Below the pieces are notes generated by a model. That model worked only from the letters and a program-made list of their open reading frames with translations, made no database searches and was not told the origin of the DNA. Below, one piece after another: positions 1,334 through 13,159 of a DNA stretch of 32,000 bases. This stretch comes from Desulfobulbus propionicus (GTDB lineage: Bacteria; Desulfobacterota; Dissulfuribacteria; Dissulfuribacterales; DYLC01). Numbering within the stretch: position 1 is the first letter of the stretch; the number at the start of each line of letters is the position of its first letter. Where the stretch lies: assembly GCA_020722285.1 (NCBI GenBank), contig DYLC01000001.1:21984-53983 (forward strand), written 5' to 3'. The position numbers were made by a program, and so were the translations under genes.

Positions 1334-2182
1334 GAAAATATCAACACCCCTTCGATAAAACTCTCAGGCATCTCTGCATGCTCCACATCGATAAACCCAA
1401 TACGTTTAACATCTTGCAGTTTTTCCAATGTCTGTCTAATGACTGAAAGAGGCGTCTTGCGAGCAGGCCTGTAAACAAACCCAGCAACACAAAAACGGCA
1501 CCCCCTGCCCAAGCCCCGAGTCAATTCAACAAGGGCTGTATCCTTGAAATGTGTCTGTTGTGAAACAATCTGTGAGACAGTAGCAGAGTCTGGAGGCCAG
1601 ATAGCTCTGGCAATCGGCACAGGAGAAAGGTGTGGAACACATTCTTCATGTCCTCCCCCTTCAGGTAAAAAAGACGGGATGTAACCGCTTGCAATCCGGT
1701 CTTTAATGAGTCCAAGCCTGTCCTTTCTGGATACAGATTGATCAGCCAACTTATTAATAATTTAGTGGAAATTCTCTGCTTGAGTCTCAAATTCACCCAA
1801 AAGTATGACATCCAGAAAAGGCGCTACAGGCTCTGGGTTGATTATCATGGCAACGCCACCAGCAAACACAAGGGGTTCACACAGGCGAAACATTTCTCCA
1901 TTGCAAGCGTAATGCCTGCGCTTGCAATGTCAAATATGATTTGTGGATAACTTGCTTCAAAGCTTACAGAAAAAAGGATGAGATCAAAATCTCTTAAAGG
2001 CCAGACTCTTCCGACATCCATGAAAGACGGATGCCAGCATGGCCTGCCTTTGGCGCATAGTTGGAGTCAGGCTTGAAAACACGCTCCACTCCTATGTGAT
2101 CATAGGAGTGGAGTATAGAGTAAACCGCCTGAAAACCGAGATTGGACATGCCAACTTCATTGTGTTTCAGAAAACACAAGGG
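1330..2182 (-). pseudogene. Decayed, truncated paralog of a B12-binding-domain radical SAM protein (TIGR03960-like)
   Basis: Three collinear minus-strand fragments parallel the N-terminal third of the intact 885-aa gene at 4872-7529. Fragment one is CFLKHNEVGMSNLGFQAVYSIL, matching CFPDLYEVGMSHLGLHILYHIL. Fragment two is RDFDLILFSVSFEASYPQII...AGGVAMIINPEPVAPFLDVILLGEFE, reached only through frameshifts near 1990 and 1860. Fragment three follows an in-frame TAA near 1760 and reads ELTRGLGRGCRFCVAGFVYRPARK, matching EIARGCTRGCRFCQAGMIYRPVRER. About 30 aa are missing at the N-terminus (TAG at 2183-2185), and the reading frame ends about 60 aa after the CxxxCxxC motif. Confidence 0.7.
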
Positions 2183-2196
2183 CTACCGAAAATCTG

Positions 2197-2219
2197 GCTG
2201 TCCAGCGTTTGCGGACAGC
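2197..2219 (-). terminator. Hairpin downstream of the 608-aa gene; possible intrinsic terminator
   Basis: GCTGTCC-(9 nt)-GGACAGC is a perfect 7-bp stem lying 8 nt after the stop at 2227. On the minus strand it is followed by CAGATTTTCGG, only a short interrupted U-tract. Confidence 0.45.
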
Positions 2220-2226
2220 GCCCTTT

Positions 2227-4053
2227 TCAATCCTCGTCGTCCTGCTCCATTCTGGCCATGTCTTCAAACCTGATATCCAGTCCAAGCACTCCGATTATCT
2301 CATCCTCTATATTTCTTATTGGGGCGGATACCGTGATACACAATGCCCCAGTTATCTTGGAAGTGTAAAAGTGAGAGATATATATCTTACCTGTCTTGAT
2401 CGGTTCAATAAACCATGGCCGGTCAGAAAAATCATTGTAGAGCTGGAACTGGGCATACTTTGTGCGAAACTCTACATGAGTGATGTTTTCCGTAATTTTT
2501 TTGCCTTCAGTATTGACAACATACATAAACTGTACATAAGGATTTTCAGCCAGCCTCTGTTTCAGAAGAGGCTCTATCCTGGCTGGATCCATGGATGTAA
2601 TGTCTGGCAGTTCCACCAGACCTTCCACGATTTCTGTTGCCAGTTCCCGCACTTTTGCCTCAAGCCTGTCAAATTCAGAAACAAAAAACTCTGGCAAAAA
2701 TTTTCTCGCCAGCATCTCCATTTCCTCGTCGCTCATGGAAGTGATACGACCTGCATCATATTGCTGCATCACTTTCTTATACATTTTCACAATACCTGGG
2801 TGACGCTTGTCAACCTGCGCCTCACCAGCAAAACCGAGCTTCATGTTCACCCAGTGTGCAATGCCGGCCGAACCACTTTTATCTGAAATTATCACAGATA
2901 CAGGGCGATTCAGGATCTTTTCCGTATTGAAAATGTTGTAAATCTCTTCATTCTTCAAAAGGCCGTCTGCATGAATGCCCGCGCTGGTAGCATTGAAATC
3001 AGCTCCAACAAGCGGACAGTTGCGAGGTATGTGAACCCCAAGCTCCTTTTCAAAAAAGCGAGCCATATCTGTGATAGCCGTGGTATCTATTCCGTCCTGT
3101 GTGCCTCTCAAGGCTATGCGCTCTATCAAAAGCCCCTCTATCGGTGTGTTGCCTGTCCGTTCCCCAAAACCCAGAAGAGTTCCATTGACTGCGCCACAAC
3201 CGTACAGCCATGCTGAGGAGGCGTTAATTACAGATTTGTAAAAATCATTGTGACCATGCCATTCCAAAAGCTCGCCAGGTACACCTGCATCCTCAATCAC
3301 CGTGCGCACCAGCTTTGGCACACTGCGGGGCAGGCTTGCTCCAGGATATGTCACCCCATAGCCAAGGGTATCGCAAAGGCGTATCTTGATATCAATTCCG
3401 CTTTCTTCCCTTAACTTCATCAGTTCTATAGCAAATGGAATGACAAATCCATAAATATCCGCCCTTGTAATGTCCTCAAAATGACAACGAGGTCTTATGC
3501 CCTGTTCAAGGGCAGCTTTTACAATAGAAAGATACCCCTCCATTGCCTGAGAGCGAGTTTTATTGAGCTTCAAAAACACATGGTAGTCAGAGATTGAAGT
3601 TAGAATGCCCGTTTCTTCAAGCCCCATCTCTTTTACAAGCCTGAGATCCTCAGCCTTAGCCCTGATCCAGCCAGTAATCTCTGGAAATTGGTAGTCTTTT
3701 TCACGACATGCCATCAAGGCATCCCGATCCTTCTGTGTGTAGAGGAAAAACTCTGACTGCCTGATAATACCTTTTGGCCCACTTAGACGATGCAGAAAAT
3801 CAAATATCGTCGATATCTGTTCTACTGAATAGGGAGGCCTTGCCTGTTGGCCATCCCTGAAAGTTGTATCAGTAATGAACATATTATCGCATGGCTCAGG
3901 CATTGCAAACTTGTGATCAAATGTGATCTTGCAGACCTCGTCATAGGGAAACATCTCCCTCATGAGGTTTGGAGTCTCCACATCATGCAGTTTATACCAA
4001 TGTTCGCTGTGTTTATGGTCAAGGAGCTTTTTGGTTGGATTCCATTTCGCCAT
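2227..4053 (-). CDS. DRE-TIM (HMGL-like) aldolase of the isopropylmalate/homocitrate/Re-citrate synthase family, fused to a C-terminal Cache/PAS-like sensor domain
   Basis: 608-aa ORF with a strong RBS (AACAGGAGGAAAAAATG). The N-terminal ~430 aa carry FITDTTFRDGQQ, CHFEDITRAD, LCDTLGYG, EWHGHNDF and GFGERTGN, the catalytic TIM-barrel motifs. The FRDGQQ variant is what I associate with Re-citrate synthases. The C-terminal ~130 aa (FMYVVNTEGKKI...DRPWFIEPIKTGKIYISHFYTSKITGALCITVSAPI...IGVLGLDI) have the typical Cache/PDC signature. Confidence 0.8.
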   Translation of the reverse strand: MAKWNPTKKLLDHKHSEHWYKLHDVETPNLMREMFPYDEVCKITFDHKFAMPEPCDNMFITDTTFRDGQQARPPYSVEQISTIFDFLHRLSGPKGIIRQSEFFLYTQKDRDALMACREKDYQFPEITGWIRAKAEDLRLVKEMGLEETGILTSISDYHVFLKLNKTRSQAMEGYLSIVKAALEQGIRPRCHFEDITRADIYGFVIPFAIELMKLREESGIDIKIRLCDTLGYGVTYPGASLPRSVPKLVRTVIEDAGVPGELLEWHGHNDFYKSVINASSAWLYGCGAVNGTLLGFGERTGNTPIEGLLIERIALRGTQDGIDTTAITDMARFFEKELGVHIPRNCPLVGADFNATSAGIHADGLLKNEEIYNIFNTEKILNRPVSVIISDKSGSAGIAHWVNMKLGFAGEAQVDKRHPGIVKMYKKVMQQYDAGRITSMSDEEMEMLARKFLPEFFVSEFDRLEAKVRELATEIVEGLVELPDITSMDPARIEPLLKQRLAENPYVQFMYVVNTEGKKITENITHVEFRTKYAQFQLYNDFSDRPWFIEPIKTGKIYISHFYTSKITGALCITVSAPIRNIEDEIIGVLGLDIRFEDMARMEQDDED

Positions 4054-4273
4054 TTTTTCCTCCTGTTTTTCGATAAAATCTATAGAACTTTAAACAATCT
4101 GTATTTTGTTCGAGGACAAGGCGCAATAAGGTGAAAAATGCGCACACTTCCTAGGCGAAAGCATTTTTTGCTGATTAGCAAACAGATATCGGACAAAAGA
4201 ATCTTTCTTAACAACTCAGAAAGTTTAATGTAAAAAAGCCCGAAAGTCAAAGCCCTTTCACATAAAAGAGCTG

Positions 4274-4885
4274 CTATACCCTGACAACCTTTGTGGCAAG
4301 CTGAAAAGAGGTCACAATATCAAGCATATTTGTGGTCTCGCCCACTGCCTTTTGCTCAAGCAGGCCAAAATGATTAAGGCAGGTGCCGCACACTAATATG
4401 CTCACCCCAGACTCCTCCAAAGCCTTCAGGCTTTCAAGATATTCTGATCCAGTAATTGCAAGTCTGACGCCGGCATTAACAAATACAATCCGCCATAGCG
4501 CCCCACCCATTTCCTTCAGGGTCACAATAAAGCTTTTCATTAAGAGCCTGCCAAGCTCAGCATCCCCTGTGCCCATTGAGTCGGATGGTATGAAGACAAG
4601 CACCCTTTCCACCTCTGATTCTTTTTCTGAAACAGAAGGCGCAGGGTCAACAGCAATGGCGCAGCCTCCCTTGGCTGTAAGGATAAAAAAGTCGGTTGCA
4701 TTCTCTTTTACCTCAACAACCCAGCCCTGGCTCCTGAAAAATCTTTCCACATTCTGACGCGCTGCCTCATTGTCAACAGTTATCTCCACGATAGCTTCAG
4801 GATGACTCTCAATAGCCTCTTTTGCCACCAGCACAGGCTTTGGACAGGCAAGCCCCTTGCAATCATATCGTTTAATCACAGTCAA
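4274..4885 (-). CDS. yedF: YedF-type sulfurtransferase-like (selenium metabolism) protein: TusA-like N-domain plus DsrE-like C-domain
   Basis: 203 aa. The N-terminus YDCKGLACPKPVL carries the TusA CPxP motif. The C-terminal half (VLVFIPSDSMGTGDAELG...ILVCGTCLNHFG) is DsrE-fold-like. Start is TTG at 4885, 4 nt after AGGAGG (GTG at 4879 is an alternative). The gene overlaps the upstream gene by 14 nt. Confidence 0.8.
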   Translation of the reverse strand: MTVIKRYDCKGLACPKPVLVAKEAIESHPEAIVEITVDNEAARQNVERFFRSQGWVVEVKENATDFFILTAKGGCAIAVDPAPSVSEKESEVERVLVFIPSDSMGTGDAELGRLLMKSFIVTLKEMGGALWRIVFVNAGVRLAITGSEYLESLKALEESGVSILVCGTCLNHFGLLEQKAVGETTNMLDIVTSFQLATKVVRV

Positions 4886-7529
4886 AATCCCTCCTTACAA
4901 CGCGTATGCGCTGGCAATCCGACTGGCTAAGCCCAAAGATTGACTTTATCATCTCTATGGGTTTTGCAGACGGTCTGACCTCGAACGACGGCTTCATTTT
5001 CAAGAATGTTTTTTCCTGCAGATAAATGTATTCCTGCTCAATATCCGATAACCAGTTTTGAAGCTCACCTATCTCATTAACCTCCTTAAATCCAAGAGGT
5101 GCAAGTTCCTTAATCTGTTTTTTCAGGTCAAAAGAGATTATTTTTCCTTTTTTTTCAAGATCAACCTCCCACACATCCTGCACGTTGAAGTTATCTGTCA
5201 TTCTGCAAATATCTGCTGGCTCCTTTTGTAAAATCAGAAAGAAATAATCCCAGCGATCCTCAAAGGAAATCCGCTCGTCACCAGTCAGCTTTTGACAGGA
5301 TGTAAGCCTGACTCCAGGAGAAAGCTCCTGATTGAGCCTTGATATAATCTCTGAACTGTCAATGGATATCTCAAGCTCCATGCCAAGCTTCTGAGACAGA
5401 CCTTCCATTGCCATGGAAAGCGGAGAGCCAAAGGAAAGATAGGGCATTGGGTGAAAACCATGAGAATAAAGAAGCGGCAAAGCCGCCCTGCGGCATGCCC
5501 GATGAAACATGTGGGCCATGTCAAGGTGGCCAATAAAGCGCGCATCGCCTATCTTTGAGTAGTGTAGCTGATATCTGTTCCGCTTTTCCAGAGGCGCAAG
5601 ACTGATTTCTGATGACATAGAGCGTGTTTTTTTTGCCGTGGCTGAATAACAAACTACAGGCTCAAAGGAACGAGGCTTGATCTTTTTGAAATCACATACC
5701 CCACACCCCTGACATTTTCCATGTCTGCAGTCAGGCGTATAAAGCTCCTGGACAGAAGCCGGATCATCAGCCATCTTAATGGCTTTTTGCCTTTCAGAAC
5801 GCAAGTAGTCTGTGGTTACACCTGTAAAAATATACCTCCAGGCAAGCTCGGCATCAACAGAAATTGGCTCAAGGTATGCAGCAAGATCAATCCCCAACTC
5901 CCTGGCTGCATCTTCGTAAAGGTCAAATCTGAGATGGTCGCTCCATGCGTCAAGCCTAGCGCCCTTATGCCAGACCAACTCCAAAAGCCTTGTAAGTCTT
6001 CTGTCGCCCCTGGAAAAGACGCCCTCCAGAAAACTCATGACAGGGTTGTGCCACTTGAAAATAATGGAGCGGTCTTTCAGGTTGCTTCTTATCAACTCAA
6101 GCCTTCGCCTGCTCTCCTCAATGCTGATCTGCCCTTCCCACTGAAAAGGCGTATGTGATTTTGGAACGAACGTACCAACACTTATCGTAACAGTGATAGA
6201 TTTGTTGATAGATTTTCCCAACCGTACAAGCCTCCTGGCAAGCTCTGCAATAGCAAGTACGTCATCATCTGTTTCAGTTGGCAGTCCGATCATGAAATAA
6301 AGCTTCAGGCCCTTCCAGCCGTTTTCGTACACAATCCTCGCCGTTTCAAAAAGGCCCTTTTCTGTAATGCCCTTGTTGATCACCTGTCTCATTCGCTCAC
6401 TTCCTGCCTCAGGAGCAAGGGTAAAACCTGTTTTCCGTGCCTGCTTGATGCTGTCCACCATTTCCTTGCCAAGCGTGCCAACCCGAAGCGATGGCAAGGA
6501 GACAGAGACCCGGTCATCTCTGTCCATAAGCCTTGCGATCAAGGGCTGAATAGAGCTGTAATCGCCTGTGCTGAGACTTAAAAGTGAAAGCTCTTCCCAG
6601 CCTGAAGCCTTCAACCCTGCTTCGCATAGCCCGGATATAGTTTCAAAGGCACGTTCTCTTACTGGCCTATAGATCATGCCAGCCTGACAAAAACGGCACC
6701 CCCTGGTGCAGCCTCTGGCGATTTCAACCCCAAATCTGTCATGCACGATCTTAACCTGCGGAACAAGCGGTTTTATTGGAAACGAGGCTGAATCAAGTTC
6801 TGGCAGGATCCGTCTTTTGACAGGTGGCACATTCTGCTTTTGGCTACCAGGTTCTGATGGCCACCTTTCTGGCGGCGTATTGCTCTGAATCCTGTAAATT
6901 GGTCTGTAAAACGATGGCACATAAATGCCTTCAATCCCTGCAAGTATCTCAAGGAGGGCGCTTTTGCTGTCTTTGTCCCTAATCTTTCCCTTACAATCCT
7001 TAACCCTTTGGGCTATTTCGACAATTGCCTCCTCGCCATCTCCAATCAAAACAGCATCGAAGAAATCTGCCACCGGTTCAGGCTGCACAGAGGCGCTGCC
7101 TCCTCCAAGCACCAAGGGAAAAGGGGTTTCACGCCTGTCTTTGGAGTAAAAGGGTATAGACGAAAGGCTTAAAACAGTAGGGATGTTCGTGTAGCACAAC
7201 TCATAGGGCAGGGTAATACCAAGGATGTCAAATTGACTGACAGGTCGTCTGCTTTCAACTGCCCAAAGAGGTGTGCTGCTCTCCCGCATCTGATGCTCCA
7301 TGTCAGGATCAGGGGCATAGACCCTGTCTGCAAGAACCCAAGGCAGGTCATTTAAAATGTGATAAAGGATGTGAAGTCCCAGATGGGACATGCCAACCTC
7401 ATAGAGGTCAGGGAAACAGAGGCAAAACCTGACATCAGCATCCTGCCAGTTTTTTCGCCTGGCGTTTGTTTCAACCCCTGTATAGCGGGACGGCCGCTGC
7501 ACAGAGCCAAGGAGATGAGCAATATTCAT
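4872..7529 (-). CDS. Radical SAM protein of the TIGR03960 type (B12-binding-like N-domain) fused to a DUF2344/TIGR03936 C-terminal module; function unknown
   Basis: 885 aa. The CxxxCxxC cluster motif sits in EIARGCTRGCRFCQAGMIYRP. The N-terminus FPDLYEVGMSHLGLHILY and the segment LVLGGGSASVQPEPVADFFDAVLIGDGEE form the B12-binding-like fold. The C-terminus RYQLHYSKIGDARFIGHLDMAHMFHRACRRAALPLLYSHGFHPMPYLSFGSPLSMAMEG is the DUF2344 signature. The ATG directly abuts the recR stop (TAA|ATG). Confidence 0.85.
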   Translation of the reverse strand: MNIAHLLGSVQRPSRYTGVETNARRKNWQDADVRFCLCFPDLYEVGMSHLGLHILYHILNDLPWVLADRVYAPDPDMEHQMRESSTPLWAVESRRPVSQFDILGITLPYELCYTNIPTVLSLSSIPFYSKDRRETPFPLVLGGGSASVQPEPVADFFDAVLIGDGEEAIVEIAQRVKDCKGKIRDKDSKSALLEILAGIEGIYVPSFYRPIYRIQSNTPPERWPSEPGSQKQNVPPVKRRILPELDSASFPIKPLVPQVKIVHDRFGVEIARGCTRGCRFCQAGMIYRPVRERAFETISGLCEAGLKASGWEELSLLSLSTGDYSSIQPLIARLMDRDDRVSVSLPSLRVGTLGKEMVDSIKQARKTGFTLAPEAGSERMRQVINKGITEKGLFETARIVYENGWKGLKLYFMIGLPTETDDDVLAIAELARRLVRLGKSINKSITVTISVGTFVPKSHTPFQWEGQISIEESRRRLELIRSNLKDRSIIFKWHNPVMSFLEGVFSRGDRRLTRLLELVWHKGARLDAWSDHLRFDLYEDAARELGIDLAAYLEPISVDAELAWRYIFTGVTTDYLRSERQKAIKMADDPASVQELYTPDCRHGKCQGCGVCDFKKIKPRSFEPVVCYSATAKKTRSMSSEISLAPLEKRNRYQLHYSKIGDARFIGHLDMAHMFHRACRRAALPLLYSHGFHPMPYLSFGSPLSMAMEGLSQKLGMELEISIDSSEIISRLNQELSPGVRLTSCQKLTGDERISFEDRWDYFFLILQKEPADICRMTDNFNVQDVWEVDLEKKGKIISFDLKKQIKELAPLGFKEVNEIGELQNWLSDIEQEYIYLQEKTFLKMKPSFEVRPSAKPIEMIKSIFGLSQSDCQRIRVVRRDFDCD

Positions 7530-8168
7530 TTACGGCTTGCCGCAATTGAAACGATGCTCCATAGCACGTTTTAAGGTGATAGCATCCGCATATTTGACAT
7601 CCATGCCCATTGGAATGCCGCATGCAAGTCTTGTAATGACAGGTAATTTGGATGGCGTAAGCCGTTCGCCGAGCGCCTGAATCCTAGAGATGATATAAGC
7701 GCAGGTAGCCTCTCCGGCAGCAGTACTGCTGGTGGCAATTACAACCTCTGAAACCGGACTTTTTTCAATACGTTCCACAAGCTCCCTGATCCTGAGCTCA
7801 TCCGGCCCTATGCCCTCCTGCGGAGACAAGACGCCCTGCAACACATGATAAACCCCCCTGTAAGCGCCTGATGCCTCCATTGCAAGCATGTCTCCAGGCC
7901 CTTCCACCACACAAACTGTTTCATGGTTACGCCTCGAATCAGCACAGACAGGACACGGGTCAGTTTCTGAAAATGCATAACAGGCAGAACAGTAGCTTAT
8001 CCGCTTGTGCAGTTCAGCAATGGCACCTGAAAGCTCAAGGGCAACAGCCTCCTCACCTCGCAGAATATACAGGGCATATCGCGTTGCCGTCTTCTCTCCG
8101 ACCCCTGGAAATCTCTGAAGATTTCTAATAAGCCTTTCAAGGGCAGGAGGAATGACTTTGACCTGCAT
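7530..8168 (-). CDS. recR: Recombination protein RecR
   Basis: FPGVGEKTATRYALYIL (HhH), CSACYAFSETDPCPVCAD (C4 zinc finger) and VCVVEGPGDMLAME (Toprim). I prefer the ATG at 8168, which has GGAG 8 nt upstream, over the ORF-track start at 8198, which has no RBS. Confidence 0.93.
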   Translation of the reverse strand: MQVKVIPPALERLIRNLQRFPGVGEKTATRYALYILRGEEAVALELSGAIAELHKRISYCSACYAFSETDPCPVCADSRRNHETVCVVEGPGDMLAMEASGAYRGVYHVLQGVLSPQEGIGPDELRIRELVERIEKSPVSEVVIATSSTAAGEATCAYIISRIQALGERLTPSKLPVITRLACGIPMGMDVKYADAITLKRAMEHRFNCGKP

Positions 8169-8213
8169 ATCAAAGACTCCTAATTTGCCGCTGCTCATTT
8201 GTCAAAAACATCA

Positions 8214-8528
8214 TCACATCAGACCTGGTATCTTCATGCCGCCAGTTATCTTGGACATCTCCTGCTCCAGCATCTGCTTAGACCTGCTGAGGGCCTCATT
8301 CACTGCCGCCACTACCATGTCCTGCAACATCTCAACATCATCCGGGTTCACCGCTTCCTTCTCTATTGTGATAGACACAAGCTCATGCTTGCCATTGGCA
8401 ACCGCCTTGACCATTCCGCCTCCAACGCTCGCCTCAATTGTGCGATGAGAAAGCTCTTCCTGCATCTTGGTCATCTTGTTCTGAAGCATCTGCGCCTGCC
8501 GTATCATTTCCTTCATGTTGTGCTGCAT
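8214..8528 (-). CDS. ybaB: Nucleoid-associated protein YbaB/EbfC
   Basis: 104 aa with MIRQAQMLQNKMTKMQEEL...ASVGGGMVKAVANGKHELVSITI...DDVEMLQDMVVAAVNEAL. RBS AAGGAG is present. The position between dnaX and recR is the canonical one. Confidence 0.95.
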   Translation of the reverse strand: MQHNMKEMIRQAQMLQNKMTKMQEELSHRTIEASVGGGMVKAVANGKHELVSITIEKEAVNPDDVEMLQDMVVAAVNEALSRSKQMLEQEMSKITGGMKIPGLM

Positions 8529-8571
8529 TGTTTTCTCCTTAGTGAACTTGTGGGGACTAAAACTAAAAAAA

Positions 8572-10287
8572 TTATTTTTTAAAAAGGCTCACATCAACTA
8601 TTTTGGCGTCAAAGATGGCCAATGCATCCTGCACCAGTCTGTGCTGCAATAACTGTTCTTTTGTGCCGCCCTGCTGTCTATCTTGTTTTGTATCAGCAAG
8701 ATCAGCGGTCTCCTGTCGATCTACAGGAACAACAGACAAGGCTATGGTGCGGCCTGCAAACTCAGAGGCCATACCCCTGAGCTTTACAAGGTTGCCTTCA
8801 GCCTTTAGCATCTCATACTCAAAACCCGGATTGCACTCAAGGATCAATTGATCAGGCCTGTCAGTTGGCTGGATATTTTTACAGCATCTGAGATATGTTT
8901 CAAGCGGTGGATTATGCCTTCGAACAACATCACAGAAATCCTTCCAATTGTCATTGGTAATGCTGCTTGCAAGGGGCTTTTCATGTGTTTTTTCTTCTTC
9001 ACAGGAAACTGTCTGCTTGGATTCCAATGTATTTTTTCCTGTGGCAACAGTTGCTGACGGTTGAAAGTTTACAGCCTTAGTCTGCCCTCTCGCAGTATTT
9101 ACTACAATTTCTGGTCCCTCACATGTTGTTTTATGTATAAATTGAGGCCGGATATCTCCAATCTTCTCAAGAATTGAAGCAAGAGGCACCAGATTTTTTA
9201 TTGTGCAAAGACGCACCAAGAGTATCTCAGATAAAATTCTTGGGCTTGATGACCGTGAAAGTCCTTCCAGGCTTTTCATCAGCATATCAAGAAGCTGAAG
9301 AATAAAAACAGCAGATACTGTATCAAGTAAACGCTTAAGTTCTTCATCGCTGGCCAAATCAACACCGCTCACCAAAAGAGGCATAGCCTTGTCATATCCA
9401 AGCTCCTTTACCAGCAAGGTATCCCGCAAGGCATGAGCAAAATCCATAAGCAACCCTTTGAGCTCAACACCTTTCAGATAAGCTGTTTCCAGTTGTTCAA
9501 GCGCCATAGCGACATCAGACGTTAAAATCGCCTTCAATAGTCCGGTTAGCACAGTACTTTTGACAATACCAAGGGCATCACACAGATCTTCTGTGTTCAT
9601 TACCCCATAGGCGATGGCCTGGTCCAGCAAACTCAGGCTGTCACGGACACTTCCATCCGCCTCTTTGGCAATGAGAGACACAGCCTCATGCTCCATGCAT
9701 AAGCCCTCTTTTTGCAAAAGATTCTCTAAATGTCTGGCTATATCAAGATGATGTAACCGTTTAAACTCATGATGCTGACAACGAGAATGGATAGTGGCCG
9801 GAATTTTCTGAGACTCAGTAGTGGCCAGGATGAAATAGACAAAGCCAGGCGGCTCCTCAAGAGTCTTGAGCAGGGCGTTAAACGCCTCCTTGGTGAGCAT
9901 ATGCACTTCATCTATAATATAAACCCGAAAGCGGCACATGGCTGGCATGAATTTGCAGTTTTCCCTAAGCGCCCTTATCTCATCTATTCCACGATTGGAA
10001 GCACCATCAATCTCCTGGACATCAACTGCTGTGCCATTGGTGATTGCATGACATTTTGGACAGGTATTGCATGGAGTAGGAGTAGGACCGTGGTCACAAT
10101 TAAGCGCCTTGGCAAGAATGCGGGCAACAGTAGTCTTTCCCACTCCTCTAACGCCACTGAATATCTGGGCATGGGCAAGCCTTTTATTCTCTATTGCATT
10201 TTGAAGTGTTCTGGTGACAGAGGCTTGCCCGATGACATCTTCAAATGCCTGAGGTCTGTATTTTCTGGCAAGGACCAAGTATGACAT
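8572..10287 (-). CDS. dnaX: DNA polymerase III subunit gamma/tau
   Basis: MSYLVLARKYRPQAFEDVIGQ, Walker A GVRGVGKTTVARILAK, zinc module CDHGPTPTPCNTCPKCH, and Walker B YIIDEVHML. Start is set at the ATG at 10287. The ORF-track extension to 10332 overlaps the SRP RNA gene. Confidence 0.95.
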   Translation of the reverse strand: MSYLVLARKYRPQAFEDVIGQASVTRTLQNAIENKRLAHAQIFSGVRGVGKTTVARILAKALNCDHGPTPTPCNTCPKCHAITNGTAVDVQEIDGASNRGIDEIRALRENCKFMPAMCRFRVYIIDEVHMLTKEAFNALLKTLEEPPGFVYFILATTESQKIPATIHSRCQHHEFKRLHHLDIARHLENLLQKEGLCMEHEAVSLIAKEADGSVRDSLSLLDQAIAYGVMNTEDLCDALGIVKSTVLTGLLKAILTSDVAMALEQLETAYLKGVELKGLLMDFAHALRDTLLVKELGYDKAMPLLVSGVDLASDEELKRLLDTVSAVFILQLLDMLMKSLEGLSRSSSPRILSEILLVRLCTIKNLVPLASILEKIGDIRPQFIHKTTCEGPEIVVNTARGQTKAVNFQPSATVATGKNTLESKQTVSCEEEKTHEKPLASSITNDNWKDFCDVVRRHNPPLETYLRCCKNIQPTDRPDQLILECNPGFEYEMLKAEGNLVKLRGMASEFAGRTIALSVVPVDRQETADLADTKQDRQQGGTKEQLLQHRLVQDALAIFDAKIVDVSLFKK

Positions 10288-10310
10288 ATAGTATTTCAAA
10301 GACAAAAATA

Positions 10311-10404
10311 GCCAGGCACCCCCGCGGCACACAAGATTGACTGCTGCCGTTGCTTCCTTCCGGACCTAGCGGGGTTCACAGGACCATGTTGCGCAGGACC
10401 TGGC
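10311..10404 (-). ncRNA. ffs: Signal recognition particle RNA (small 4.5S type)
   Basis: The minus strand reads GCCAGGUCCUGCGC...GCUAGGUCCGGAAGGAAGCAACGGCAGC...GCCGCGGGGGUGCCUGGC. It contains the conserved domain IV motif GGUCCGGAAGGAAGCA. The 5' GCCAGG/CCUGCG segments pair with the 3' CGCGGG/CCUGGC segments, and UAUUUUUG follows. The position just upstream of dnaX is a classic synteny. Ends are accurate to about 5 nt. Confidence 0.8.
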
Positions 10405-10425
10405 TAAACAGGGGATAAAGTTAGA

Positions 10426-10518
10426 TGGCGGAGAGGGAGGGATTTGAACCCTCGGTACACCTTTTGGGCATACACACGATTTCCAATCGTGCTCCTTCAG
10501 CCGCTCGGACACCTCTCC
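10426..10518 (-). tRNA. tRNA-Ser(GGA): tRNA-Ser (anticodon GGA), long variable arm, CCA encoded
   Basis: The reverse complement is GGAGAGGUGUCCGAGCGGCUGAAGGAGCACGAUUGGAAAUCGUG...CCGAGGGUUCAAAUCCCUCCCUCUCCGCCA. The acceptor stem is GGAGAGG/CCUCUCC. The anticodon stem is CACGA/UCGUG with loop UUGGAAA. The T-loop is GGUUCAAAUCC. Confidence 0.95.
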
Positions 10519-10591
10519 ACAGAGGATTTTACAATACGCTGTATCAACTAAGTTTGCAAGTAGGGAAAGAAGATTTTTTTAGCTTTCAGAT

Positions 10592-10617
10592 GTAACCACA
10601 CAAAAAAGCCCCTCTCT
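10592..10617 (-). terminator. Rho-independent terminator downstream of tRNA-Arg
   Basis: The minus strand reads AGCCCCUC-CAAGA-GAGGGGCU followed by UUUUUUG. This is an 8-bp GC-rich stem, a short loop and a U6 tract. Confidence 0.8.
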
Positions 10618-10643
10618 TGGAGGGGCTAACCTATTGATTTTAT

Positions 10644-10720
10644 TGGTATGCCTGAAGGGATTCGAACCCCTGGCCTTCGGATTCGTAGTCCGACGCTCTA
10701 TCCAACTGAGCTACAGGCAC
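10644..10720 (-). tRNA. tRNA-Arg(ACG): tRNA-Arg (anticodon ACG), CCA encoded
   Basis: The reverse complement is GUGCCUGUAGCUCAGUUGGAUAGAGCGUCGGACUACGAAUCCGAAGGCCAGGGGUUCGAAUCCCUUCAGGCAUACCA. The D-arm is GCUC/GAGC. The anticodon stem is UCGGA/UCCGA with loop CUACGAA. The T-loop is UUCGAAU. As encoded, the acceptor stem begins with a G1-U72 wobble. Confidence 0.92.
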
Positions 10721-11998: not shown

Positions 11999-13159
11999 TT
12001 ACATTTCAACAACAAGAGCATTGCTGTCTTCATTCCAGTCAATCACAACATACCAAACAACCATCAAGGCTATAATCAAAAACATTGTGCCACCATAACC
12101 AAGATAATCAGGCAGATACACTGCAGAGCCAAGTTTTTCCATCCACCCATTAGCACCAAACCAGTTACGCATCAGGGAGTTTGTAAGCCCAAAGATTATG
12201 ATAACCACCCAGAGTTTAATCTGCCCCTCAGCCACACGCCACAAAGAACCACTTCCACAACCACCTGCAACAACCATTGCTGCGCCGAAGATAAATCCGC
12301 CAACCAAGCTGCCCCAACCAAATGCAGACTCAACATACATGGAAGTATCCCTGAGCTCAGTAAACTTCAGAATCGCTATTCCAAACATACCCAATATTAC
12401 ACTGACAGCAACTGCCTTTCCCATTGCAGCCTCACCTGTCATAAACGGCTCCCTGAAACCGTTTACCATACAAAGCCTGCTGCGATGAAATACATAACCG
12501 ATGCCAGCACCAATCAACAAATAACCAGGCATCAACTCTGCACCATCAACATCAGAACCAGTATATGCATAAGCAGCCCCAATCAGAGCAGCAAATCCCA
12601 CCCAGCCCAAGGCTGGAGGAAGCTTGTTAAGTATGGTTGGCCCAGCAGGACCTGGAGTAAAATGCTCCATTTCCCAGTAGATGTATCTAAGCCCCACATA
12701 CACACCGGCAATAAGACCAATCATCATAGTTATGCCACTGGCAGAAAGGTTCTGAATCGCACAGTAAAACCCTCCAACATTACAACCAAAAGCCAGAGTT
12801 GAGCCAATCCCCATCAGGATGCCAGCAATAACACCCTTCCAAATCTCAAGCATCGGAGGAAATCTGAAGGCAAACTCACGGGCGATCACAGCAGAAATCC
12901 AGGCGCCAGCCAGTATTCCAATATCAATTACAGAGGATGAGAAATACAGCGGATGCTTGGGCGCATTTTCATATAAACCAACGGCATAAAATACCCAGTC
13001 TCCCCAATTACGAATCCCGCCAACCACTCCCCAGGGCCTTGCCCACGCTACCATAAATATAGACAACAAGGCAAGCAGTATCCCCCCGGTCATAGGAGAC
13101 CAGGTACGCTTAAAAAACGAATCATAAATCTCTGAAACCTTACTTGACATTGAACTCAT
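11999..13159 (-). CDS. yeeE: YeeE/YedE-family membrane transporter (thiosulfate or sulfur-compound uptake type)
   Basis: 386 aa, polytopic and glycine-rich, with the duplicated YeeE/YedE motifs LAFGCNVGG and VVAGGCGSGSLWR. RBS is CAGGAGGGG. A tusA-like gene follows 29 nt downstream. Confidence 0.88.
   Translation of the reverse strand: MSSMSSKVSEIYDSFFKRTWSPMTGGILLALLSIFMVAWARPWGVVGGIRNWGDWVFYAVGLYENAPKHPLYFSSSVIDIGILAGAWISAVIAREFAFRFPPMLEIWKGVIAGILMGIGSTLAFGCNVGGFYCAIQNLSASGITMMIGLIAGVYVGLRYIYWEMEHFTPGPAGPTILNKLPPALGWVGFAALIGAAYAYTGSDVDGAELMPGYLLIGAGIGYVFHRSRLCMVNGFREPFMTGEAAMGKAVAVSVILGMFGIAILKFTELRDTSMYVESAFGWGSLVGGFIFGAAMVVAGGCGSGSLWRVAEGQIKLWVVIIIFGLTNSLMRNWFGANGWMEKLGSAVYLPDYLGYGGTMFLIIALMVVWYVVIDWNEDSNALVVEM

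Follow-up and report, generated by a model that had tools for sequence, protein, structure and literature searches.

A Re-citrate synthase with a C-terminal Cache domain, a putative small-molecule sensor, in a Desulfobulbus propionicus assembly

Cache domains are viewed as sensors that work outside the cell. A 32,000-nucleotide stretch of contig DYLC01000001.1 in the Desulfobulbus propionicus assembly GCA_020722285.1 (hereafter the window) encodes an enzyme that ends in such a domain, which raises the questions of what reaction this enzyme catalyses and what a Cache domain does at its end. The gene lies on the minus strand, where an open reading frame (ORF) running from 4053 to 2227 encodes 608 amino acids and a stop codon; residue numbers below are those of this protein, and nucleotide positions those of the window. 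With high confidence, the gene can be assigned to a Re-face citrate synthase (EC 2.3.3.3) of the clade that includes the Clostridium kluyveri and Syntrophus aciditrophicus enzymes. The locus as a whole is probably explained by a Re-citrate synthase to which a small-molecule-sensing Cache domain has been added at the C-terminus.

Enzyme identity and metabolic context

The catalytic part had been described in an earlier note on this DNA, made from the sequence alone, as a Re-citrate/homocitrate synthase-like DRE-TIM enzyme, and this assignment stands. Pfam places an HMGL-like domain at residues 60–332 (E 1.4e-28) and a weakly matching HCS_D2-like subdomain at 355–403, with the helical end of the catalytic region at 405–457, while no equivalog cut-off for LeuA, CimA or NifV is reached. 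The FRDGQQ motif reported in the note can be read in the translation at residues 65–70. Among 54 aligned sequences, T61, T63–Q70 (TxTTFRDGQQ) and E264–D270 (EWHGHND) are invariant, D62 is kept in at least 90 %, and six positions of the N-terminal extension (P28, L30, F35, P36, Y37 and F45) are nearly so; this leader is characteristic of the clade and present in most of the loci examined. The full-length AlphaFold2 monomer, built on the same alignment, has a mean predicted local distance difference test (pLDDT) score of 90.3 and a predicted template modelling (pTM) score of 0.74. When it is compared with the PDB using Foldseek, homocitrate synthase 6ktq and methylthioalkylmalate, isopropylmalate and citramalate synthases are retrieved as the best matches, all for the catalytic part.

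The protein (69.4 kDa; pI 5.4) has a hydrophilic N-terminus and a highest Kyte-Doolittle mean of 1.02 over 19 residues. The absence of a transmembrane helix claimed previously is thereby borne out, and the lack of any hydrophobic segment, together with the hydrophilic N-terminus, indicates a cytoplasmic protein. A secreted or membrane-bound Cache protein was rejected on the same Kyte-Doolittle maximum. The protein is matched by over 8000 clusters at 90 % identity, of which the top 120 all agree with it in length and carry the same three Pfam domains, so that a chance ORF can be discounted. The Cache domain is already annotated in public databases. Some of the names attached to homologues by NCBI are misleading, including 'histone-lysine N-methyltransferase' and 'triose-phosphate isomerase' (P0012, P0047 and others), while some fragments of the family carry the JGI name 'citrate (Re)-synthase'.

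An ordinary LeuA, CimA or NifV was rejected on the scores of the corresponding NCBIfam equivalogs (LeuA, CimA and NifV/HCS), the best of which is 136 bits against cut-offs of 229–950; the true LeuA of the same genome scores 767 bits. Two reference enzymes, SYN_02536 of S. aciditrophicus and CKL_0973 of C. kluyveri, were compared by means of fragments of at most 80 amino acids from their printed sequences (Table S1, PMC12016533). A 79-amino acid barrel stretch of CKL_0973 is 60 % identical to residues 95–172 (E 3e-31), compared with 21 % identity (E 0.9) to the genome's own LeuA, and a 78-amino acid stretch of the SYN_02536 Cache core shares 50 % identity with residues 517–594 (E 8e-25). On the basis of these fragment matches and of the LeuA, CimA and NifV scores below cut-off, the gene is considered an orthologue of the characterised Re-citrate synthases. 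The enzyme itself is already known: the gene is a new but unremarkable member of a characterised family and shares the domain architecture of the Syntrophus enzyme. It would catalyse the Mn/Co-dependent DRE-TIM Claisen condensation of acetyl-CoA and oxaloacetate to citrate, and would thereby supply the oxidative branch leading to 2-oxoglutarate and glutamate, the organism being an anaerobe without Si-citrate synthase.

The remainder of the genome was considered in terms of this role. No match to Si-citrate synthase (PF00285) was found in the assembly (1.69 Mb; 100 contigs; 90.4 % complete), and only two genes, those for LeuA and the Re-citrate synthase, carry an HMGL-like domain. An NADP-isocitrate dehydrogenase above its equivalog cut-off is encoded, as is LeuB. 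The aconitase family is represented by a single pair, LeuCD beside leuA, and neither ilvA nor cimA was found in the 90 %-complete assembly. The dedicated aconitase is either unassembled or replaced. In this genome (contigs C28, C12 and C33), either the genes for the aconitase, cimA and ilvA have escaped assembly, or LeuA and LeuCD have more than one function.

Across the phylum, 121 genomes, each at least 90 % complete, were sampled, although related genomes among them are not independent samples. The Re-citrate synthase gene occurs in 63 of these (60 with the Cache part and three without) and PF00285 in 64. Fifty-one genomes encode the Re-citrate synthase only, 52 PF00285 only, twelve both and six neither; among the twelve with both, the PF00285 matches of two are no more than weak and partial, and two have the Cache-less form. 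This largely complementary distribution, which holds across many families, is as expected of alternative citrate synthases.

Relatives of the protein are encoded in at least 592 species genomes in approximately ten phyla, from which 80 loci were kept, with S. aciditrophicus and C. kluyveri not among them. In 37/78 loci (L006–L056 and others) the Re-citrate synthase gene is closely preceded by an aspS gene of the same strand, which ends at a median distance of about 100 nucleotides from it (range 3–954), and hisS precedes aspS in 29. An isocitrate dehydrogenase gene is found close downstream of the Re-citrate synthase gene in nine loci. In a Syntrophorhabdales metagenome-assembled genome (MAG; L046), a tight operon at 2119–8697 incorporates aspS, the Re-citrate synthase gene, a LeuC-like aconitase large subunit (419 amino acids), its small subunit (165 amino acids) and isocitrate dehydrogenase (391 amino acids), with junctions that overlap or span 4 nucleotides. 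In this pathway the two-subunit LeuCD/HacAB-like enzyme seems to act as the aconitase; the LeuC of the D. propionicus assembly is only 42 % identical to it. The linkage to aconitase in L046 and to isocitrate dehydrogenase in the nine loci supports a role in the conversion of citrate to 2-oxoglutarate. Neither this linkage nor the hisS-aspS-Re-citrate synthase order is kept in the window, the latter having been lost in its own genome.

The Cache domain and its proposed role

The C-terminal Cache/PDC fold proposed in the earlier note is confirmed by Pfam matches above cut-off, by a model of the domain alone and by its structural relatives. MCP-like_PDC_1 (PF22673) matches residues 493–600 with 62.9 bits (cut-off 27) and dCache_1 (PF02743) residues 474–598 with 56.5 bits (cut-off 45). 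The single-module PF22673 model is covered end to end (1–112 of 113), but the match to the two-module dCache_1 model is confined to its first half (31–154 of 240), from which it follows that the protein carries one PDC module; the chain ends eight residues beyond it. The double module of dCache_1, membrane-distal plus membrane-proximal, is not found in the Pfam matches, and the domain does not lie extracytoplasmically between transmembrane helices and upstream of a signalling output, but C-terminally on an enzyme. Long N-terminal helices (460–503) lead into the PDC core (506–600), which is followed by a terminal helix and an acidic tail. Comparison of the family profile with the PDB retrieves Tlp3 (6e-11), KinD (1.2e-9) and PctA (1.6e-8). 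Residues 458–608 modelled alone in AlphaFold2 reach a pLDDT of 89.1 and a pTM of 0.85, and Foldseek matches this model to KinD sensor domains, among them the complex with pyruvate (E 4e-9; TM 0.68), to Tlp3 with bound amino acids (E ~7e-7), and further to WalK, the cytoplasmic YkuI C-terminal domain, DctB, CitA, DcuS and Mlp24/37. A LeuA-type regulatory domain was rejected, since no LeuA_dimer Pfam match is obtained at E up to 1 and the region folds as a PDC; in the C-terminal region no RAM domain match appears in Pfam, only Cache. Of the two outcomes that the note had named as fatal to its view, one was a LeuA-type regulatory domain or no PDC fold in the tail and the other a clustering with LeuA or CimA, and neither is observed.

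The tail motifs listed in the note can all be located in the translation (DRPWF at residues 544–548, YISHFYTSKITGALCITVSAPI and GVLGLDI). Conservation within the domain was counted in the 54 sequences, which share 43–76 % identity. W547, S565, L571 and D593 are found in all 54, F548 and T574 in 53, T568 in 52, R545 in 48 (with K in a further three) and Y563 in 43 (with F in a further eight). In a hidden Markov model alignment to the chemoreceptor PctA, R545 corresponds to R126, W547 to W128, F548 to Y129, Y563 to Y144 and D593 to D173. In the amino-acid motif of such receptors Y121, R126 and W128 bind the ligand carboxylate and Y144 and D173 its amino group, with 13–17 residues separating the two halves of the motif; binding by PctA is 61-fold weaker in R126A and abolished in D173A or D173N (Gumerov et al. 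2022, PMC8915833). Four of the five dCache_1AA motif residues are kept in the window protein with matching spacing, 15 residues separating W from Y and 29 separating Y from D. The invariant residues of the domain are those aligned to the ligand pocket (R545, W547, Y563 and D593).

The Cache fusion is old and common. The kept loci include Desulfobacterales, Syntrophales, Syntrophobacterales, Syntrophorhabdales and Desulfomonilales, the Desulfovibrionaceae (Desulfovibrio, Bilophila and Mailhella) and Thermodesulfatator, as well as Nitrospirota, Omnitrophota, Armatimonadota, Auribacterota, Spirochaetota, Elusimicrobiota, Lentisphaerota and Margulisbacteria. In a FastTree phylogeny of the catalytic columns only (104 rows; LeuA outgroup; CKL_0973 not placed), 79 Cache-bearing rows fall in one clade of 81 with support of 94. 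Two Cache-less rows are nested in this clade, a Bacillota protein and a protein with an N-terminal receiver domain, while the deeper branches are Cache-less or have weak ACT-like matches. A minimum of four gains or losses of the Cache domain is needed on this tree, and one early gain followed by a few losses would be the simplest reading, pending a better-rooted tree.

Several individual relatives differ in the domains joined to the catalytic region. P0243, 55 % identical, has an N-terminal response-regulator receiver, P0280 and P0320 show weak C-terminal ACT-domain matches, and P0274 is fused to an ATP-grasp/L-amino-acid ligase. In the complete genome of Syntrophobacter fumaroxidans, a 311-amino acid 'pyruvate carboxyltransferase' (P0219) matches only 49 % of the query and may be a split or truncated gene; a search for shorter proteins mostly gave fragments at contig ends.

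What, then, does the domain do? Conservation of four of the five motif residues with the matching spacing suggests that it binds a small molecule with a carboxylate and an amine, and the leucine-binding domain of LeuA and the RAM domain of the Sulfolobus homocitrate synthase suggest, by analogy, that it regulates the enzyme. On these grounds the module may well be a small-molecule-sensing allosteric domain. It is a cytoplasmic equivalent of the membrane-distal, ligand-binding module of dCache_1 receptors, and its predicted pocket retains the R-x-W and the Y...D with which amino-acid-sensing Cache domains bind the carboxylate and the amine, respectively. The retention of the Cache domain in 79/81 members of a clade spanning approximately ten phyla, and the presence of other regulatory additions in deeper relatives (ACT-like C-terminal matches and an N-terminal receiver domain), are consistent with such a role. 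The most likely class of ligand, named here only tentatively from the pocket residues, would be an amino acid. Glutamate, as the end product of the pathway, is one candidate, through which feedback inhibition could be exerted, and aspartate, to which oxaloacetate is linked by transamination, is a second obvious one. An amino-acid-sensing switch that places the Re-citrate synthase under the control of glutamate as end product or aspartate as precursor is possible, though less likely than not.

Several observations weigh against this explanation. The equivalent of PctA Y121 (position 540) is variable, being E, T, S, D or N, and KinD, the best structural match, binds pyruvate, not an amino acid. 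The placement of the domains in the monomer model (pTM 0.74) is uninformative on the oligomer. Cache-less orthologues exist and work, namely the C. kluyveri enzyme and those of 3/63 genomes in the phylum, which implies that the Cache tail is dispensable for catalysis. Finally, no dedicated aconitase was found in the 90 %-complete assembly, so that the pathway is not closed on paper.

Two other interpretations of the module are both unlikely. The first, raised in the earlier note, is that of a structural or oligomerisation domain without a ligand, which holds a homotetramer together or stabilises the enzyme. The long N-terminal helices are of the type through which Cache/PDC domains commonly dimerise, and the Syntrophus enzyme is reportedly a homotetramer (Kim et al. 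2013). However, the invariant residues are those of the PctA/Tlp3 ligand pocket and not surface positions, and a purely structural role gives no obvious reason for a buried Arg-Trp...Tyr...Asp constellation to persist in some ten phyla, while structural and sensing roles are not mutually exclusive. The second interpretation, no more probable than the first, is that a metabolite without an amino group is sensed, such as pyruvate (as in KinD), citrate or a C4-dicarboxylate (as in CitA, DcuS and DctB) or 2-oxoglutarate, giving product inhibition or feed-forward control. The invariant D593, which aligns to the amino-group-binding Asp whose replacement by Asn abolishes binding in PctA, argues against this. 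So does KinD itself, which has neither the W nor the D at the aligned positions, and the single conserved basic residue of the pocket suits a tri- or dicarboxylate poorly. In its favour are the top structural matches to KinD with pyruvate, with CitA, DctB and DcuS also retrieved, the missing motif residue Y121, and the fact that citrate, oxaloacetate and 2-oxoglutarate are the obvious metabolites of the pathway. That the enzyme instead, or in addition, carries out a different 2-oxoacid:acetyl-CoA condensation, such as that of a citramalate synthase serving isoleucine synthesis, is very improbable: the missing cimA, ilvA and dedicated aconitase and the restriction of the HMGL-like domain to LeuA and this protein would fit, but the assembly is only 90 % complete and in 100 contigs, the protein lies inside the characterised Re-citrate synthase clade and far from the CimA models, its distribution is complementary to that of Si-citrate synthase, and in other genomes its gene is linked to those for isocitrate dehydrogenase and aconitase.

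The small-molecule-sensing Cache domain, if correctly read, bears on the entry to the oxidative branch of the tricarboxylic acid cycle, which is provided by Re-citrate synthase in many strict anaerobes, including sulfate reducers (gut Desulfovibrio and Bilophila among them), syntrophs and Nitrospirota. A conserved predicted ligand-binding domain on this enzyme offers a direct, testable handle on the regulation of oxidative-branch flux, and the conservation of the pocket makes the question of the tail's role directly testable. A widespread cytoplasmic Cache domain fused to an enzyme would also widen the known uses of the fold. In the literature searched, which excluded the original enzyme papers, no paper dealing with Re-citrate synthase and Cache together was found, and nothing relevant on DVU0398 or cytoplasmic Cache domains was recovered from it. 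The amino-acid-sensing switch, if real, would be the first Cache domain, as far as the literature searched extends, to regulate a metabolic enzyme rather than a signalling protein, and a third independent solution to feedback control in the LeuA/HCS superfamily, in addition to those of the LeuA and RAM domains.

Features of the locus and its surroundings

The features of the gene and its flanks are collected in Table 1. The Re-citrate synthase gene stands alone in the window. A local operon context was rejected, as the neighbours (a TusA-DsrE fusion, a radical SAM gene, recR, dnaX and an M48 protease) are not metabolic partners. No Rfam family indicative of a riboswitch or leader RNA was found in the 220-nucleotide gap upstream of the gene, and the promoter-like site there is weak, one such site being found where 4.1 are expected by chance.

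Table 1. Features of the Re-citrate synthase gene, in window coordinates
Feature	Position	Strand	Basis
Whole coding sequence, Re-citrate synthase with C-terminal Cache domain	2227..4053	-	ORF; translation; homologues of equal length and architecture
N-terminal extension, residues 1–55 (MAKWNP...FPYDEV)	3889..4053	-	Clade-typical; shared with SYN_02536 and most loci
Catalytic region, residues 56–457	2683..3888	-	Pfam; invariant columns; AlphaFold2; Foldseek
Cache/PDC domain, residues 458–608	2230..2682	-	PF22673 and PF02743 above cut-off; profile against PDB; AlphaFold2; Foldseek
Predicted ligand-pocket stretch, residues 545–593 (R545, W547, F548, Y563, S565, T568, D593)	2275..2421	-	Conservation; HMM alignment to PctA
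Shine-Dalgarno AGGAGG, 5 nt upstream of ATG 4053	4059..4064	-	Sequence read directly
Promoter-like site TTGACT-17-TAAACT, in 220-nt upstream gap	4222..4250	-	Consensus match only
Terminator-like 13-bp hairpin, ~115 nt past stop codon	2084..2113	-	Consensus match only

Directly upstream, at 4274–4885 on the minus strand, lies a gene for a fused TusA-DsrE/DsrF-like protein of 203 amino acids, and a sulfur-transport (PF04143) gene is found at 11999–13159. On the 3' side, a frameshifted remnant of a radical SAM gene of the Radical_SAM_N2 type occupies 1342–2267 on the minus strand, with two frames matching residues 1–120 and 129–320 of an intact 581-amino acid gene in relatives; in the close relatives L025, L007 and L008 this intact gene is located directly 3' of the Re-citrate synthase gene. 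The window also holds an intact, more distant radical SAM paralogue (32 % identical) at 4872–7529. Just upstream of dnaX, the region 10307–10720 on the minus strand incorporates a signal recognition particle (SRP) RNA (10307–10405) and tRNA genes (10429–10518 and 10647–10720). The first codon of the longest dnaX ORF (GTG at 10332) falls within the SRP RNA, so that dnaX probably starts at a more internal position.

Comparison with known systems

The closest characterised counterpart is SYN_02536 of S. aciditrophicus (Kim et al. 2013, J Bacteriol 195:1689), which has in common with the window protein the leader MAKWNPQKRVL..., the motifs of the catalytic part and, at the C-terminus, the Cache domain, which reads ...SDREWF...TGKLHVTDFYISKMTGALCFTVSEPI...GIFGVDI... 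(PMC12016533, Table S1). With approximately 640 amino acids in print and the same Cache tail, it also bears out the statement in the earlier note that an unusually long Re-citrate synthase is known from a syntrophic deltaproteobacterium. Relatives from Syntrophales MAGs are 59–63 % identical overall to the window protein, and the Syntrophales proteins (629 amino acids) extend about 20 residues past the Cache domain in an ATQIAL...W tail that is missing here. The substrate range and metal dependence of the Syntrophus enzyme are reportedly described by Kim et al. 2013, and co-expression of GroEL reportedly helped with this enzyme. CKL_0973 of C. kluyveri (Li et al. 2007, J Bacteriol 189:4299) belongs to the same catalytic clade and has the FRDGQQ-type loop, but ends after about 455 amino acids without a Cache domain and resembles the Cache-less rows of the tree. 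The Dehalococcoides/Heliomicrobium-type Re-citrate synthases (CAI83711 and HM1_2993) perform the same reaction with the same stereochemistry (PMC12016533), but form a separate clade nearer NifV, with a TLRDGEQ-type loop, no Cache domain and only about 28 % identity to the Syntrophus and C. kluyveri enzymes.

The dCache_1AA chemoreceptors PctA, Tlp3, Mlp24 and Mlp37 have the PDC fold and the R-x-W...Y...D pocket residues in common with the Cache domain described here. The latter differs in having one module instead of two, in being cytoplasmic, without transmembrane helices and fused to an enzyme instead of a signalling domain, and in the pocket, where the position corresponding to Y121 is variable and F stands in place of Y129. 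In the LeuA, CimA and homocitrate synthase family, a C-terminal allosteric domain occupies the same place, after the barrel and helical subdomain, although its fold is unrelated to that of the window Cache domain. The LeuA regulatory domain binds leucine, and the RAM domain of the Sulfolobus homocitrate synthase (6ktq) binds lysine. By analogy with these allosteric domains, the Cache domain of the Re-citrate synthase would be a sensor of the end product of its pathway.

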